From the NCBI RefSeq assembly GCF_013122565.1, contig NZ_CP053258.1: a DNA stretch of 64,000 bases. One strand, given 5' to 3'. Below the pieces are notes generated by a model. That model saw only the letters and a list, made by a program, of their open reading frames with translations, was not told the DNA's origin and searched no databases. Shown in pieces: positions 2,572 through 10,891 of the stretch. This DNA is from Escherichia coli (lineage in GTDB: Bacteria > Pseudomonadota > Gammaproteobacteria > Enterobacterales > Enterobacteriaceae). Made by a program: the position numbers and the translations under genes. Within the stretch, counting starts at the first letter, position 1. Every line of letters begins with the position of its first letter.

Positions 2572-2623
2572 ATATAAATAATCGTTCTTGCGCAGTCATC
2601 TGCGCTATTCGGGGGAAATCAGC

Positions 2624-4123
2624 ATGGGTCTGATATCGAGTGTCGTAAAATCACTTTCTAAACTGTCGATGATTGGTCGCGCGCTGATGCTGCCAATTTC
2701 GCTTCTGCCTGCCGCCGGGTTGTTGCTGGCGTTCGGCGATAAATTCCACATGCCGTTGATGATGAATGCCGGCGGTATCATTTTTGATAACTTGCCGATG
2801 CTTTTTGCTATCGGTTCTGCCGTGGGACTGGCTTCAGAATCGGGTATTGCGGCGCTATCCGCAGCTGTATCCGTCTTTGTCACTAATATCACCATCGGTA
2901 CTGTCCTTGGCATCACACCAGAGATGGCCGGGCAAGGCGGTAAATATGCGATGGTGGTGGGGATCCCAACGCTGCAAATGGGCGTCTTCGGCGGCCTGAT
3001 ATGCGGGGTTCTGGCGGCGTGGTGTTACAACCGTTTTCATACCATGCAATTACCAGAATTCCTTGGCTTTTTCTCCGGCAAACGCTTCGTGGCTATCGCG
3101 ACGGCTTTTCTTTCCTTCATCCTTGGCTTGTTACTGCCCTATGTCTGGCAACATATTCAGTCGGGAATCGATGCCCTATCAGTTATCGTCAATGGTGATA
3201 ACCAGGCGGCATCGACCTTTATTTTTGGTGTGACAGAACGTGCGCTCATTCCGCTTGGCCTGCACCACATCTGGTATCCATCGTTCTGGTACTCTTTTGG
3301 TGATTACACCACCCAGGCAGGCCAAATGATCCACGGTGACCAAACAATTTGGTTCAAAATGCTGGAAGAAGGTGTGAAATCGTTCAGTAGCGACAGCTAC
3401 CATAACGCGGGTAAGTTTTTACAGGGCGAGTTCCCGCTCATGCTGTTCGCGCTGCCTGCGGCGTGTCTGGCGATGTACCATGAAGCACACACCAAAAATA
3501 AGAAAATTGCCGCCGGTATTCTGTTCTCTGCCGCATTAACCTGTTTCCTGACAGGTATTACAGAACCCGTTGAATTTACCTTTATTTTCGTGGCACCGGT
3601 ACTGTACGTATTCAACGCGATAATGGCTGGCCTCTCCTATATGGCGATGTATCTGCTCCATGCCCATATTGCAAAATCCTTCTCGGCAGGGCTTATCGAT
3701 TATATTTCGTTTGGCATCCTGCCATCATTTAACGGCTACGAAACCAACTTCCTGAGTGCCATTATTGTTGGCGTACCGATGGCGATTATCTATTACTTCA
3801 CTTTCCGCTTTGTTATTCGCCGTTTTGATGTGAAAACACCGGGTCGAGCCGAAAGCACCGTATCCGCTAACGATAAAACCGATGATGAACTGGCTACGGA
3901 AATTATCAGTCTGCTGGGCGGCCAACAAAATATCTCTTCCGTCGCATCCTGCATAACACGCCTGCGTCTGGAAGTGGCAGATAAGGATGTAGTTGATAAA
4001 GATGGACTGAACAATGTCGGTGCTCGTGGTGTGGTTTTTGTCGGCGATAACGGCATTCAGGTGATTTTTGGCGCACGTGCACAATTTATCGCGCAAACCA
4101 TGTCGACGATGATTGGCAAATAG
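2624..4123 (+). CDS. PTS glucose/maltose-family EIICB component
   Basis: Polytopic membrane N-terminal domain plus C-terminal EIIB with CITRLR phospho-cysteine motif; start placed at ATG 2624 after GGGGGA RBS (track ORF begins at TTG 2588). Confidence 0.8.
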   Translation: MGLISSVVKSLSKLSMIGRALMLPISLLPAAGLLLAFGDKFHMPLMMNAGGIIFDNLPMLFAIGSAVGLASESGIAALSAAVSVFVTNITIGTVLGITPEMAGQGGKYAMVVGIPTLQMGVFGGLICGVLAAWCYNRFHTMQLPEFLGFFSGKRFVAIATAFLSFILGLLLPYVWQHIQSGIDALSVIVNGDNQAASTFIFGVTERALIPLGLHHIWYPSFWYSFGDYTTQAGQMIHGDQTIWFKMLEEGVKSFSSDSYHNAGKFLQGEFPLMLFALPAACLAMYHEAHTKNKKIAAGILFSAALTCFLTGITEPVEFTFIFVAPVLYVFNAIMAGLSYMAMYLLHAHIAKSFSAGLIDYISFGILPSFNGYETNFLSAIIVGVPMAIIYYFTFRFVIRRFDVKTPGRAESTVSANDKTDDELATEIISLLGGQQNISSVASCITRLRLEVADKDVVDKDGLNNVGARGVVFVGDNGIQVIFGARAQFIAQTMSTMIGK

Positions 4124-4190
4124 TCATAAGATTACGCTTTGTTGGAGGTTCTGGTCCCTGACTGGAACCTTCGTACTTATTGTTCAGGGA

Positions 4191-5213
4191 GTGAAGTTGA
4201 AGAAAGTCAGCATAATTGATGTTGCCAAAAGCGCAGGAGTCTCGGTCTCTACTGTGTCGCTGGTCCTGCGCCAGAAAGGCAAAATTTCCGAGGCAACCAT
4301 CGAGAAAGTTCATGCTGCCATTACTGAGCTTGGCTACGTGCATAATGTTGCCGCCGCCAATTTACGCTCCAACACTTCAAATCTTATCGGTCTGATTTTA
4401 CGTGATTTTAGCGATAGCTTTTCCATCAAAGTGATGGCAAGTATTGTTCAGGAACTGGAAGCACAAGGATATATGGTTTTCCTCGGGCAACCACAGAACG
4501 AGCATGAACATCTTGAACGCTGTTTGCTTTCCTTCAAGCAACAAGGTGTTGCCGGAGTGATTTATCTGGCTTCCGATGCGCAGCGTGAAACCTTACCCGC
4601 GCTGATTCGCCAGTGCCCTCTTCCTCTTGTCGTCGCCTCACAATCCCCCATCAAAGATGAATGCAATCTGGTATTGCGCGACAACCAGCAGGCGGCAAGC
4701 CTTGCCACGCGTTATTTAATTGAGCGTGGACATCGTTACATTGCCTACCTCGGCGGCAGAGAAAGCGATCTTATCCGCCAACAGCGACTGGTGGGTTTTC
4801 GCCAGACCCTGGCAAAATTCGGTATTGCCAGTCGTGACGAGTTCACGCCAGCCTGTGACGATGATACATACGCCGCCAGCATGGCCACGCGCCAGTTGCT
4901 GGAGAATAACAATGCCATCACCGCCCTACTCTGCCATTCGCCCGAGGCCATGATTGGCGGTATCAACGGCATACATCAGGTGGGGCGCACCGTCGGGAGA
5001 GACATCTTTCTGACCCAGCAGGTGGCGCTAATTGGTTTTGAAGATATGCTGCACATCAATCTGACCTCGCCCGTTTTCACCTATGTCTCTTCCGCCAGTG
5101 AAGAAACCGGACGCCAGGCTGCTAATCTAATAATCCGCAAGTTAAAAGACCCGGAGCTGCAAATTCAAAGAATTGCGCTTTCCGGGCAACTGGTAGTGCG
5201 GGAATCGGCGTAA
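4191..5213 (+). CDS. LacI-family transcriptional regulator
   Basis: N-terminal HTH KKVSIIDVAKSAGVSVSTVSLVL followed by periplasmic-binding-protein-like sugar-binding fold; start at GTG 4191 or TTG 4197 is uncertain. Confidence 0.8.
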   Translation: MKLKKVSIIDVAKSAGVSVSTVSLVLRQKGKISEATIEKVHAAITELGYVHNVAAANLRSNTSNLIGLILRDFSDSFSIKVMASIVQELEAQGYMVFLGQPQNEHEHLERCLLSFKQQGVAGVIYLASDAQRETLPALIRQCPLPLVVASQSPIKDECNLVLRDNQQAASLATRYLIERGHRYIAYLGGRESDLIRQQRLVGFRQTLAKFGIASRDEFTPACDDDTYAASMATRQLLENNNAITALLCHSPEAMIGGINGIHQVGRTVGRDIFLTQQVALIGFEDMLHINLTSPVFTYVSSASEETGRQAANLIIRKLKDPELQIQRIALSGQLVVRESA

Positions 5214-5336
5214 TTATTTCTGCCAGTCTCCGTCTTTAGCCGGCGGTCATCGCCACAACTGCACTGATGGATATGGTATTCTTTCGAGTATCTTTGCGGG
5301 CACTAACGCCAGGAGTATCGCCATGAGAATGGCGCG

Positions 5337-6818
5337 ATGAACACAGGGAATTTCGAGTCGATACAAATCATACTCGACGCGCAAGAGTGGCGTAGCCTGC
5401 CGCTGCATCTGCGTCTGTATCACGCTTTTCGCCAATTGGTGATTTCCGGCGCGTTGTCTGATGGCGCAAAGCTGCCGTCCGCTCGCGCACTGGCCCAGCA
5501 ACTTGGTCTTTCCAGAGATACCGTCGAAAATGCCTATTCCCAGCTTCAGCGCGACGGTTTTATGACCCGCAGGCAGGGAGCCGGGAGTTTCGCCAGCCGC
5601 CAGGGGATCCCGCAAATTCAGGGGCAGCACGCTCAGCCCCCCTCGCCCGGACAAGCACCGGCATTAACCGCCCGCTGGCAGCCGATTGCCGATCGCGCCG
5701 TCTCTTTCGATGCCCGCCAGATGCAGACCTTTACGCTTGGCCTGCCGGAAACGCGAAACTTCCCGCTAAACATTTGGCAGAACTTTTCCCGCCAGATCCA
5801 ACGTGAGCAGGCGCATACGCTGATGTTAAATAGCGATCCGCAGGGCGAGCCGGAGCTGCGCCAGCAAATTGCGCATTACCTTAATTTTGAACGCGGCGCG
5901 AAGGTAGATGCAGAGCAGATTGTGATTGTCAGCGGCGCACGGCAGGCGTTCTGGCTGTGCGGGCAACTGCTGGCAGAGGCCGGGCAATCAGTGGCGATGG
6001 AAAATCCAGGCTATCCCGGCGCGCGTCAGGCGTTTTCTGCCGCACAGCTTAATCTTCTTCCCGTTGAAGTGGATGACGCCGGGATCCGGGTGGATAAACT
6101 GCCGCCCGCACCGCTGGTTTACGTCACGCCGTCGCACCAGTTTCCTTCTGGTCATTTGCTCACGCTGGCGCGCCGTCACGCCCTGATTGCCTGGGCACAG
6201 GCGCACAATGCGTGGATTATTGAAGACGACTACGACAGCGAATTTCACTACACCAGCGCGCCCGTCGCCTGTCTGCAAGGGTTAGACTGCGAGCAACGCA
6301 CCCTGTATGTCGGCACTTTCAGCAAAACGCTCTATCCTGGTTTGCGCATTGGTTATCTGGTGGTGCCTGCCTCGCTGGCTGCGCACTTTGCCGCCGCACG
6401 TAATTTGCTTGATGGCGCAACGCCTGCGTTATCCCAACTGACGCTGGCGCGATTTATCGAGTCCGGTCATTTTGCCGCCCATATTCGCACCATGCGCAAT
6501 ATGTACGCGGTGCGACAGGCGAGCCTTGCAGAGGCTATTCATCAGCACTTAAGTGAATGGGTCACGCCAGTGGTGACATCCGGTGGATTACAAATGCCCT
6601 GCTGGCTGCATGAAGATGTTGATGAGCAACAGACGCTGAACGCGGCGCGCCGCGCCGGGTTAAATATCGCCGGGATGCGCCAGTTCTGGCTGACGCACCC
6701 CGCGCCCGCGGGCTGGCTGCTGGGATTCGCCGCCTTTACCCCCTACGAAATTGAGCAGGGAGTCAAGCGTCTGCGGGCTGCATTATGCGCTGAAAACGTG
6801 CGCCCAGCCGGGTCATAA
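5337..6818 (+). CDS. MocR/GntR-family regulator with PLP-dependent aminotransferase-like domain
   Basis: 493 aa; N-terminal GntR-type HTH (LPSARALAQQLGLSRDTVENAYSQL) plus large C-terminal aminotransferase-fold domain. Confidence 0.75.
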   Translation: MNTGNFESIQIILDAQEWRSLPLHLRLYHAFRQLVISGALSDGAKLPSARALAQQLGLSRDTVENAYSQLQRDGFMTRRQGAGSFASRQGIPQIQGQHAQPPSPGQAPALTARWQPIADRAVSFDARQMQTFTLGLPETRNFPLNIWQNFSRQIQREQAHTLMLNSDPQGEPELRQQIAHYLNFERGAKVDAEQIVIVSGARQAFWLCGQLLAEAGQSVAMENPGYPGARQAFSAAQLNLLPVEVDDAGIRVDKLPPAPLVYVTPSHQFPSGHLLTLARRHALIAWAQAHNAWIIEDDYDSEFHYTSAPVACLQGLDCEQRTLYVGTFSKTLYPGLRIGYLVVPASLAAHFAAARNLLDGATPALSQLTLARFIESGHFAAHIRTMRNMYAVRQASLAEAIHQHLSEWVTPVVTSGGLQMPCWLHEDVDEQQTLNAARRAGLNIAGMRQFWLTHPAPAGWLLGFAAFTPYEIEQGVKRLRAALCAENVRPAGS

Positions 6819-7869
6819 TCTCATACGGGATGGTGTCGCAGGCAGCCGCAACCTCTTCCAGCGTCTGGCCTGTGCCAATAAACTCCACCTTATCGCCCGC
6901 CGTCGGCGTGACGGCGCTGGCATCGACCATAAAGCTGTCCATACACACCCGCCCCAACACCGGTAACCGCACCCCGCGCCAGCATACGCCCGCCGGAGGA
7001 CGCATATTTCGCGGAACGCCATCCGCGTAACCCGCGGATATCGTGGCGATACGCAGCGGACGCGTGGCGGTAACCGTGCTGCCGTAGCCAACTGGCGTTC
7101 CGGCCGGAACATCCTGCACGCGCAGTATGGTCAGCGTCAGCGTAAAGACCGGTTTTAACGGCCTGGAAAACCACGGCTGGGTGACGCCAAACAGCGCAAT
7201 CCCCGGACGGCAGAGATCTTCCCGCCAGCCCGAGTGCAAAAACATCCCGCAGGAGTTCGCCAGCGAAAATCGGCTGCTGGGGAAAACCGTTTTTGCCTGC
7301 TGAAGTCGCGCGTGTTGCGCCATATTTAACGCATGATCCGGCCTGTCGGCGTTCGCCAGATGGCTGATGATATAATCCGGCGCAGGCCAGTTACGCTCAC
7401 GAAAAATCGCCGCCAGACGCATCAGTTGTTGCGACATCACGCCCAGCCGCGACATCCCGGAATCGAGCTGAATCATCACCGCACGCCGCTGCTGGCGCGT
7501 TTCCAGTAACGTAAGCCACGCCATCACCTGGTCTACGGAATTGAGCAATGGCGTGATCTGCTGCGCGTAACAAAATGCCATCGCCTCCGGCATAACCCCA
7601 TTAAGCACCACCACCCGCGCATCAGCGGGCAAGCATTTACGCAGCGCCACACCTTCAGAAAGCTGCGCGACAAAAAAGATCCGGCAGTTCGCCGCATACA
7701 GGGCGGGAGCAATCGCCTCCGCCCCCAGACCATAGGCATTCGCCTTCAACACCGCGCCACATTGCGCACGGGCAGCATGGCGGGCCAGGGTGCGATAATT
7801 TTCGACAATGGCGGCGAGATTGACGCACATAACGCCGCACGCCGCCTGAATTTCAGCAAGAGTTATCAT
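6763..7869 (-). CDS. alanine racemase-family (fold-type III PLP) enzyme
   Basis: 368 aa; [11 protein letters not shown]-lysine motif typical of Alr; ATG overlaps stop of upstream GlyA-like ORF (ATGA). Confidence 0.75.
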
Positions 7870-8981
7870 TGATAAGGCAACGGATAGCGGTTGGTTAGTT
7901 GTATTACTTTTTGCTCAATATCGGCGCAAATGTCTGCAATATCTGACGCGTTAATGGCCAGAATGATTTCACTTATCCAGTCAGCAATAAGCGCAAAGTC
8001 ATCCGCCTGCATCCCACGCGTGGTGCAGGCCGCGCTGCCAATACGAACGCCGGAGGTAATCGACGGCGGCTGCGGATCGCCCGGCAGGGTGTTTTTATTA
8101 ACCGTGATCCCCGCCAGTTCGAGAAAATACTCTACCTGTGCGCCGGTTAACCCCTGCGGGCGCAGGTCGATAATCCCCAGATGGCAATCGGTGCCGCCCG
8201 TTAACAGCGTCAGACCGCGCTGCGCCAGTTGCTGGCACATCGCCTGCGCATTGTCGATGACCTGCCCGGCATAACGTTTAAATTCCGGTTGTAATGCCTC
8301 GCCAAGCGCCACCGCTTTCGCCGCGATAACGTGCATCAACGGCCCGCCCTGCAAACCGGGAAAGATGGCGCTGTCGATTTTTTTCGCAAGCCGGGCGTCG
8401 TTGGTGAGGATCATGCCGCCGCGCGGCCCGCGCAACGTTTTATGCGTGGTGGTGGTGACCACATCAGCATACGCCAGCGGCGAAGGGAAACAGCCGCCCG
8501 CCACCAGCCCGGCAAAGTGCGCCATATCCACCAGCAAAATGGCGCCCACGGCATCGGCAATGCGGCGAAAACGGGCAAAATCATAGCGGCGTGGATAAGC
8601 CGATCCTCCGGCAATAATCAACCGTGGGCGCTCACGCAGCGCGATCATCTCGACTTCATCCATATCAATCAGGCCACTATGGGCATCGACGCCATAGTGA
8701 AAAGCGTTAAACCATTTGCCAGATTGATTGACCGGCGAACCGTGCGTGAGATGCCCGCCGCATTGCAGGCTCATGCCAAGAATTTTGTCGCCGGGTTTCA
8801 GCAACGCCAGATAGACCGCCTGATTCGCCTGGCTGCCGGAGTGAGGCTGCACATTGACGTAACGTGCGCCAAAGAGTTGCTGGGCGCGGGTTATCGCCAG
8901 CATCTCAACCTCATCAATAAACTTACAGCCGCCGTAGTAGCGATGCTGGTAATAACCTTCGGCGTATTTATTGGTTAACAC
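7866..8981 (-). CDS. serine hydroxymethyltransferase (GlyA) paralog; N-terminus interrupted by in-frame TAG (possible pseudogene, intact frame would start at ATG 9104)
   Basis: ORF aligns to SHMT from LTNKYAEGY onward ([21 protein letters not shown] motifs). Upstream in-frame codons read [43 protein letters not shown], still SHMT-like. Confidence 0.65.
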
Positions 8982-9337
8982 CGACCCCTGCGCCGCGAGA
9001 ACAGCGGGGCTTACGAAATTCTCCGAGGCAATCAGTTCCAGCGACTACTGCTGGCGCTGTTGCTCCTGGTTAATCAATGCAAAAAGTGGATCGTTATTTA
9101 TCATGCGCTTCCCCCGAAAATTCATCATGCGATGATTTTCGCAGGGAAAACGTCGCCCGCACCCTGCCACTTTTTAGAATGAGCGCAGACCACCTATGTC
9201 GTTTTACTTAAAAGAAGAGGGAAGAAGGCTCCAGGCATCTCCATATGCGATTCTGGTTGGTAATACATCATATTCCAGCTGCTCTTATCTGCCTACGTTA
9301 TTGCATAGGCAGAATAAGGCAGCCTCAATACGTACTT

Positions 9338-10891
9338 TTACTTGATATATTTCACGCGCATACCGTTGATCTGTTCATCCGTGATGGTGTTACCCGCTTT
9401 GAAGTAATCAACCACGGCGTGATAAACGTAATAACCGCCCGTTGTGTTACGCGCTTTCCCTTCGGTAAAGGCGGTAAAACCATCTCCACCATCAGCAAGG
9501 AAACTCTGGGTGGCAATAGAATAAACTGTCGCATCTTCAATGGGTTTGCCATTCAGAGTCAGTGTGATTACCCGCTGACCAACCGGCTTGCTGCTGTCGT
9601 ACTTCATTTCCAGGCCTTTCGATACCTGTAAAACGCCATTACTTAAACTTGCGCCGTGTTCCATCAAACTGCGTAATTGTTTCCCTGTGAGATCCATCGT
9701 CACCAGTTCGTTGGGGAACGGGAAGGTACTGATGACGCCGCCCATCGTAATCGCCCCTGCGGGGATCTCATTGCGAATACCGCCAGAGTTGGTTAAGGCT
9801 ATTTGGGTGTTTTTACCCGCCGCTACCAGTAAAGCGTCAGCCGCCAGGTTCCCGAGGGAAGCCGATTCACCATAGGCACGTTTTAATTCAACCGGCGATT
9901 GCGCCACCGTTTGTTGCACCACTTCATCAAGCTTTTTATTCCAGCCGTCGATCACCTGTTTTGTTTGCGGATCGGGCTTCCACTCGTCGGCGTAAATGGT
10001 TTTCAGCTCGAAGTTTTTCACCGTAAAATCATGCGGCTTCTCTTTGTAGTCGAGGACCAGTTTGCCCACATCAATCCCGCCGCTGTCAGTGGAGAGGATG
10101 AGCGTATTGCCGACTTTAATCGGTTCCGGCGTACCCACATGTGCATGTCCGGTGATCAAAATATCCAGCCCTTTCACCTGACTTGCCGTCTGAATATCTT
10201 TATCCAGTGCGCGACGCACATCGGTCCCTCCCATACTGGACTGGCGGGCCGGAACACCTTCATGGATCAGGGCGACGGTCAAATCAACCTTGCCTTTAAG
10301 TTCATCGATATAACGTTGTAGCCATTTAATTTCATCGCGCGCTTCAATACCCACGCGCGTGGCAGCAGATACCGTATCGTTGAAAGCAAATACTCCGTGC
10401 AAACCTATAACGCCTATTTTCACGCCGTCTTTTTCGATGATGGTATATGGCTTATCCCAGAATGATTTACTGCTGTTCTGATAAAAAACATTGCCCTGCA
10501 CAATAGGGAATTTTGCCTGACTCAACTGTAATAATGTGTTGTCCCAGCCGTGGTCAAATTCATGGTTGCCTATCGTGACGGCATCAAACGGCATAGTATT
10601 CATAATATCGATAATAGCCTTACCTTTGGTCAGGCTGCTGATATATGGCCCGGTAAAATAATCACCCGCATCAAAAAACCATGTCGCTTTATTTTTTGCT
10701 TTTTCTTGCTTAACCAGCGTAGTGATATTTGCCCAGCCGCCAATATCCCGTTTACCGTCAGCGATCCACGGCACTTTATAAGGCTCGACATGCGCATGGA
10801 GGTCGTTGGTATAAATGATGGTGACATCTTTGGCGCAAGCCCAGAACGGCAATGTTAATGCGATACCCGCAGCAAGTATTTTAATTTTCAT
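9338..10891 (-). CDS. secreted bifunctional metallophosphatase/5'-nucleotidase (UshA-like)
   Basis: 517 aa; signal peptide [20 protein letters not shown]; calcineurin-like metallophosphatase motifs (GNHEFD, GHAH) and C-terminal 5'-nucleotidase domain. Confidence 0.8.

Follow-up and report, generated by a model that had tools for sequence, protein, structure and literature searches.

A probable recent nonsense pseudogene of an accessory serine hydroxymethyltransferase paralogue in Escherichia coli

An interrupted gene in the metF–metL island

The window, by which we mean the whole 64,000-nucleotide stretch of Escherichia coli DNA analysed here, carries a group of accessory genes between metF and metL. 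The flanks consist of core E. coli genes, including metF, metL, metB, metJ, priA, glpFKX, tpiA, pfkA, cpxRA and rha. These flanking genes are 98.2–98.9% identical to those of the best complete E. coli genomes, and the strain is therefore an Escherichia of E. coli type to which none of the 5,426 complete genomes is closely related. Within the island, a 5'-nucleotidase gene (9338–10891) lies upstream of a gene of the serine hydroxymethyltransferase (SHMT) family, which is followed by an alanine-racemase-like (alr-like) gene and a gene for a MocR/PdxR-like regulator. The SHMT locus is present in three of the 5,426 complete E. coli genomes and absent from the other 5,423. In S. Typhi, the gene order is metB, metL, two small genes, 5'-nucleotidase, SHMT, alr, MocR, metF, katG; as judged by gene order, the metF–metL island is common to the window and Salmonella, and is syntenic in the two. 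The features to which the text refers are these:

7866–9104, minus strand: accessory SHMT paralogue ("SHMT 2"), probable pseudogene; 412 codons plus TGA, interrupted at codon 20
9045–9047, minus strand: premature amber codon TAG at codon 20, read as an ancestral CAG changed by a C>T transition at 9047
9102–9104, minus strand: likeliest start codon, ATG, with the Shine-Dalgarno-like GGGGGAAG 3 nt upstream
9108–9115, minus strand: Shine-Dalgarno-like GGGGGAAG, conserved in orthologues
8979–8981, minus strand: GTG at codon 42, where reinitiation first becomes possible; product of 371 aa, without residues 1–41
8439–8441, minus strand: codon for Lys222, equivalent of GlyA Lys229, the presumed PLP Schiff-base lysine; intact downstream of the stop
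6763–7869, minus strand: alanine-racemase-like gene, 368 aa (TIGR00492, 236.6 bits; cut-off 168)
5337–6818, plus strand: MocR/PdxR-like PLP-dependent transcription factor (NF052282, 435 bits; cut-off 320)
9105–9190, minus strand: conserved 5' leader of the SHMT-alr operon (from alignments), predicted to be structured (MFE −39.1 kcal/mol, z = −4.96)

On the minus strand, the SHMT frame runs from ATG 9104–9102 to TGA 7868–7866, with 412 sense positions and one internal stop. Translation of 9125–7866 likewise gives a single frame with a single internal stop, and the sole break is the TAG at 9047–9045, codon 20: in this frame MINNDPLFALINQEQQRQQ precedes the TAG, and a 10-residue stretch then leads onward to the terminal TGA. 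An earlier reading of the letters (the sequence-only reading) had proposed an in-frame amber codon in an SHMT-like minus-strand frame, with GGGGGAAG ahead of its ATG. Both proposals are borne out: the family match described below extends across the stop, and the motif is found at 9115–9108. In-frame ATGs also exist further upstream, and one of these, ATG 9125, is the PGAP start in sister alleles. The codons that follow ATG 9125 differ only non-synonymously in an aligned 87%-identity copy of the gene, and because all of its differences from that copy are non-synonymous, the stretch from ATG 9125 to ATG 9104 looks non-coding.

When a sense codon is put in place of the stop, the product reaches 612.8 bits against the SHMT model NCBIfam NF000586 (cut-off 335) over residues 7–409 of 412. 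Since this match spans the stop, there is homology on both sides of it, and the interruption is a real in-frame one rather than a chance arrangement. The repaired product fits the SHMT family profile (NCBIfam NF000586 / Pfam PF00464) at full length; in the PDB its top matches are SHMTs without exception (E-values as low as 2.8e-157), and it aligns with solved SHMT structures from residue 3 or 4 onward. Identity to E. coli GlyA is 55% over 405 residues, and the alignment range agrees with that of PDB 1DFO, the E. coli GlyA structure. In this alignment the TAG at codon 20 falls opposite GlyA Glu28, as the sequence-only reading had it, and both VVTTTTHK(222)TLRGPRGG and NKY(47)AE(49)GY...RYY(57)GG are kept. 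The paralogue retains, that is, the PLP-lysine motif T-T-T-T-H-K together with the equivalents of Tyr55, Glu57 and Tyr65. The lysine (Lys222, GlyA Lys229) corresponds to the one that forms the Schiff base with PLP in SHMTs.

By these alignments the gene is a GlyA paralogue, distinct from the housekeeping glyA. It shares with housekeeping GlyA (PDB 1DFO) the family, the fold, the PLP lysine motif and the Tyr55/Glu57/Tyr65 equivalents, but it differs in being accessory, in lying in an operon with a racemase-like gene beside a MocR regulator, and in that its orthologues have Gln or His where GlyA has Glu28. The roles of Tyr55, Glu57 and Tyr65 in the SHMT active site follow established knowledge and PMC6411801. 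Alpha-methylserine hydroxymethyltransferase, which yields D-alanine and was considered on account of the racemase partner, has Thr and His where SHMT has Tyr55 and Tyr65 (PMC6411801). This identity was rejected: the paralogue has Tyr at both donor-specificity positions, as in canonical SHMT. With its frame interrupted by the TAG at codon 20, the locus is classed as an SHMT pseudogene and not as a functional SHMT.

The start codon of the alr-like gene overlaps the stop codon of the SHMT gene (ATGA, 7869–7866), which implies translational coupling of the two. The alr-like gene itself is intact, with a dN/dS of 0.16–0.20. The MocR/PdxR-like gene is presumed, from its position and family, to encode the regulator of the SHMT-alr module; a comparative study notes repeated occurrences of GlyA-family genes in MocR regulons whose pathway is unknown (PMC5320631). 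Within the paper library searched, this was all that came up on a function of the accessory SHMT paralogue or on its being a pseudogene. The MocR-like gene (plus strand) and the alr-like gene (minus strand) are convergent and share 56 bp at their 3' ends (6763–6818); the same overlap is seen in Salmonella and in the possibly mobile copy described next.

The 87%-identity copy of the SHMT-alr-MocR trio lies at 5135–10774 of locus L006, on metagenomic contig ERZ27277080 k141_32483. It adjoins genes for ParA, a DnaB-like helicase and a DUF2857 protein, an ICE-like context. Because this copy sits beside such genes, the trio may be able to travel as a unit. The window further differs from the orthologous loci in carrying an extra pair of genes, for a PTS EIIC and a LacI/MalI-type regulator, between metF and the MocR gene (window 2588–5213). 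This segment is covered by only eight of the 5,426 complete E. coli genomes and is missing at that place in S. Typhi; we take the pair to be a second, separate accessory insertion in the metF–metL gap.

The operon is preceded by the conserved leader at 9105–9190. In the predicted fold, the leader forms two hairpins, the 3' one of which pairs GUUUUCCCUGCG with the Shine-Dalgarno sequence CGGGGGAAGC. Two of the leader pairs show compensatory changes among six sequences. Compared across Escherichia, Salmonella and a copy whose DNA is 79% identical, the leader looks far better conserved than one would expect from the synonymous divergence of the gene; leader copies are found at L001 6076–6206, L003 2997–3127, L005 6880–7010, L006 6880–7010 and L015 3771–3901. 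The leader has no match in Rfam. The only Rfam matches at E≤1 are chance, sub-threshold miRNA matches, and these fall in a different element, at 9267–9334. The leader could be a cis-regulatory RNA or an operator. The element at 9267–9334 is a near-perfect long hairpin directly downstream of the stop codon of the 5'-nucleotidase gene, of which it is probably the terminator.

Origin and authenticity of the amber codon

Comparison with orthologues revealed the likely ancestry of codon 20. Three E. coli genomes read CAG here (from alignments of the start region), the residue is Gln in the proteins of Escherichia sp. MOD1-EC7003 and E. fergusonii, and the codon is CAC (His) in S. Typhi and in the 87%-identity copy. 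Every orthologue examined thus has a sense codon at position 20 (CAG or CAC, or the residues Gln or His). Because the Escherichia orthologues read CAG or Gln, the mutation is, on this comparison, a change of CAG (Gln) to TAG by a C>T transition at window position 9047. The sequence-only reading had instead supposed a substitution of GAG to TAG; that origin is ruled out, since the orthologues carry CAG or CAC. Across homologues codon 20 is variable (Gln, His or Glu), while the N-terminus around it is conserved. An exact look-up of the repaired Gln20 parent allele found no match on record.

A single-base substitution is the smallest artefact that sequencing or assembly can introduce, and the allele is found in one lineage only (no complete E. 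coli genome of the 5,426 has it); both points would fit a strain that truly reads CAG and whose gene is intact. Four lines of evidence argue against such an error. Firstly, gene callers start a 371-aa product at GTG 8981, and in an index of 153 billion genes this product occurs on exactly one contig, Logan SRR11451224_106; over 7,116 bp the contig matches the window at 100% identity, TAG included; SRR11451224 is a public read set that was assembled separately, and it possibly comes from the same isolate, or even from the same reads, as the window. The exact alr allele of the window is found on this contig and on one further contig, of more than 1 Mb, only. Secondly, each of the 45 complete CDSs taken from a syntenic E. 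coli reference could be aligned to the window over its whole length, and none of the 45 alignments has a stop or a gap. The consensus is therefore clean, with a very low error rate, and the genome is not rich in pseudogenes; both an error-prone assembly and a Shigella-like, pseudogene-rich genome are rejected on this count.

Thirdly, homopolymers and Dcm or Dam motifs are the kind of context behind systematic long-read miscalls, and the context of the TAG, CAGCAGTAGTCG, is not a homopolymer and contains neither motif. Fourthly, independent and real knock-outs of this gene are common (see below), which gives a true knock-out a high prior. We regard a sequencing or assembly error as quite unlikely, and the amber codon is probably genuine in the strain. 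Of the 47 genes in the window, two, the PTS gene and cpxP, also end in TAG, which is therefore an ordinary terminator here.

The sequence-only reading had left the choice between a recent pseudogene and a sequencing error. Of the two, the pseudogene is favoured by the sense codon in orthologues and by the absence of decay elsewhere in the frame; the appearance of the TAG in the read-set assembly, a window free of other broken genes, and the independent inactivations in other lineages point the same way.

Repeated loss of the module and the age of the stop

Intact 412-aa orthologues are common in S. enterica, at 93–94% identity; one exact sequence (P0122) is carried by 606 contigs. P0001, which has the E. 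fergusonii "SHMT 2" in its 90% cluster, shares 98% identity with the window protein. Together, the closest orthologues—E. fergusonii "Serine hydroxymethyltransferase 2" (CAQ91260.1), S. enterica P0122 and RMDEC465 WP_490185228.1—share 93–98% amino acid identity with the window protein. They resemble the window gene in their place (the S. Typhi order), in the overlap of the SHMT stop with the alr start, and in the conserved leader; they differ in being intact, with Gln (Escherichia) or His (Salmonella) at codon 20 in place of the TAG.

Other alleles of the gene are broken. Two E. coli genomes, 2013C-4282 (C6996_RS16685) and WL297 (QU520_RS21260), carry the same gene at 96.5% DNA identity and have likewise undergone a CAG>TAG change with no further decay, but at codon 281, where PGAP annotates an "internal stop"; the resulting 280-aa product is found on 271 contigs. 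This allele is independent of the codon-20 stop, and it is widespread whereas that of the window is confined to a single lineage. In Salmonella, function has also been lost, though by frameshift or deletion: (i) in S. Paratyphi A/Sendai the frame shifts after GGCFP, an allele present on at least 1,000 contigs, (ii) a second frameshift, after ARLAKK, is carried by 10 contigs of Typhi and 51 of other S. enterica and lies, by the DNA reading, in an A7 run, (iii) a third frameshift follows IIDLR, and (iv) one allele has a 30-aa in-frame deletion. Host-restricted Salmonella such as Paratyphi A and Typhi are known for broad decay of their genomes, whereas the window contains no other broken gene. 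In the cryptic species Escherichia sp. MOD1-EC7003, a deletion fuses the SHMT gene at about codon 74 to the 5' end of the MocR gene. In all, there are at least six other independent inactivating lesions in the accessory SHMT across Escherichia and Salmonella (records L001 6176–7435, L002 3176–4435 and L015 3445–3846; proteins P0135, P0137, P0150, P0151, P0017 and P0136).

Outright loss of the trio is seen in E. coli LHM10-1, whose locus is otherwise closely syntenic and in which an unrelated spacer of ~70 bp (L016 5812–5886) replaces the 4.1-kb MocR-alr-SHMT segment (window 5214–9337). No remnant of the trio was seen at the LHM10-1 junction, and the strain keeps both the PTS-EIIC/LacI-type pair and the 5'-nucleotidase gene. 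As far as the genomes compared here indicate, the SHMT-alr-MocR module is dispensable, and lineages of Escherichia and Salmonella have repeatedly lost or disrupted it. That the repeated, independent destruction of the module reflects adaptive loss rather than neutral decay, its pathway and leader being costly in a host-associated niche, is a conjecture that we consider unlikely.

A scan of a genome collection with an invariant 27-mer recovered one relevant locus, that of Escherichia sp. MOD1-EC7003, together with six contigs from metagenome-assembled genomes (MAGs). The 27-mer, TGGAACTGATTGCNTCGGAGAATTTCG, encodes LELIASENF and is present exactly in these six contigs (L009–L014), which are labelled Prevotella, Rhodothermales, Acidobacteriota and Zixiibacteriota. 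A blastn comparison of the six contigs with the window gave no match at E≤1e-20; convergent codon choice in the contigs' own glyA genes, rather than contamination, is the likeliest explanation.

Despite the stop, the SHMT gene bears the marks of constraint. Pairwise dN/dS is 0.07–0.09 in 10 of 10 comparisons, those with the window included. Changes were polarised with three Escherichia alleles (window, RMDEC465 and 2013C-4282), giving the following counts:

Window allele: 14 synonymous, 3 missense, 1 nonsense
RMDEC465 allele (intact): 16 synonymous, 4 missense, 0 nonsense
2013C-4282 allele: 15 synonymous, 3 missense, 1 nonsense

On these figures, the gene is one that was under strong purifying selection until recently. 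The amber mutation is itself recent by the same measures, because neither dN/dS nor the branch counts show any sign of relaxed constraint after the stop arose.

Consequences of the stop

Three observations define the locus as a nonsense pseudogene: (i) the stop is in frame with homology on either side of it, (ii) orthologues have a sense codon at its position, and (iii) the stop is not conserved. We are confident that it is a genuine, recent and strain-specific loss-of-function amber mutation in a dispensable, repeatedly decaying three-gene module of PLP enzymes.

A challenge to loss of function is that an enzyme might still be made, either by readthrough or a Gln-inserting amber suppressor, or by reinitiation of an active SHMT at GTG codon 42. 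Downstream of the stop the frame is unbroken and still encodes the PLP lysine as well as the Tyr55, Glu57 and Tyr65 equivalents, but this is equally expected of a recent pseudogene. CAG>TAG is the very change that supE-type suppressors reverse, and insertion of Gln would restore the ancestral residue exactly. Natural isolates rarely carry amber suppressor tRNAs, however; no tRNA genes, and so no suppressor, were found in the 64-kb window, and two normal genes of the window are terminated by TAG.

Reinitiation is constrained by the available start codons. The sequence-only reading had stated that no ATG, GTG or TTG lies between the TAG and GTG 8981–8979, and an ORF finder and a codon-by-codon in-frame listing agree. 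It had also held that reinitiation could give only a truncated form without the ELIASEN segment; this stands, as the first restart is GTG codon 42, and the product from it lacks that motif. An SD-like AGGGG shortly upstream of GTG 8981 could favour a restart there, but it is poorly spaced (only 3 nt from the GTG), and the GTG itself sits 63 nt past the TAG. A protein beginning at residue 42 would, moreover, lack an N-terminal segment, ASEN serine included, that aligns with all solved SHMTs. We judge the persistence of a functional enzyme, by any of these routes, to be very improbable.

A programmed stop, serving regulated recoding or a deliberately split gene, has in its favour that PGAP marks an "internal stop" in the same SHMT gene of two further E. 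coli genomes, but it is effectively refuted and its probability negligible: those genomes stop at codon 281 and read CAG at codon 20, and no orthologue shares the TAG at codon 20, whereas a programmed stop would keep its position.

In the favoured reading, that of a recent loss-of-function mutation, a C>T transition at 9047 would have turned Gln codon 20 (CAG) of the accessory SHMT paralogue into the amber codon TAG. Translation from ATG 9104 would then terminate after 19 residues. Any restart at GTG codon 42 would yield a product without the N-terminal arm and without the ELIASEN segment, which contains the equivalent of GlyA Ser35 (the ASEN serine), an active-site residue. In SHMT structures, the N-terminal ELIASEN segment forms part of the dimer interface and helps to bind the carboxylate of the substrate. 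We infer that no active SHMT2 enzyme is to be expected from the window allele, because the restart product would lack both arm and segment. Expression of the alr-like gene would also be expected to fall, through lost translational coupling and Rho-dependent polarity of the upstream nonsense codon, because its ATGA-coupled start now follows ~1.2 kb of untranslated mRNA. The window allele would, on this account, be one more step in the decay of the SHMT-alr-MocR module.

As an event, this is a routine nonsense pseudogene in a dispensable accessory operon and belongs to a kind already known; annotation pipelines already label the sister alleles "internal stop". Its practical use lies in annotation, where the locus is best named an SHMT pseudogene, not a 371-aa "SHMT", with Gln as its ancestral residue. 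A small follow-up could be worthwhile for the SHMT-racemase-MocR module, which is lost time and again, and for its conserved structured leader; the module is a reasonable candidate for functional study in Salmonella, where it is intact.
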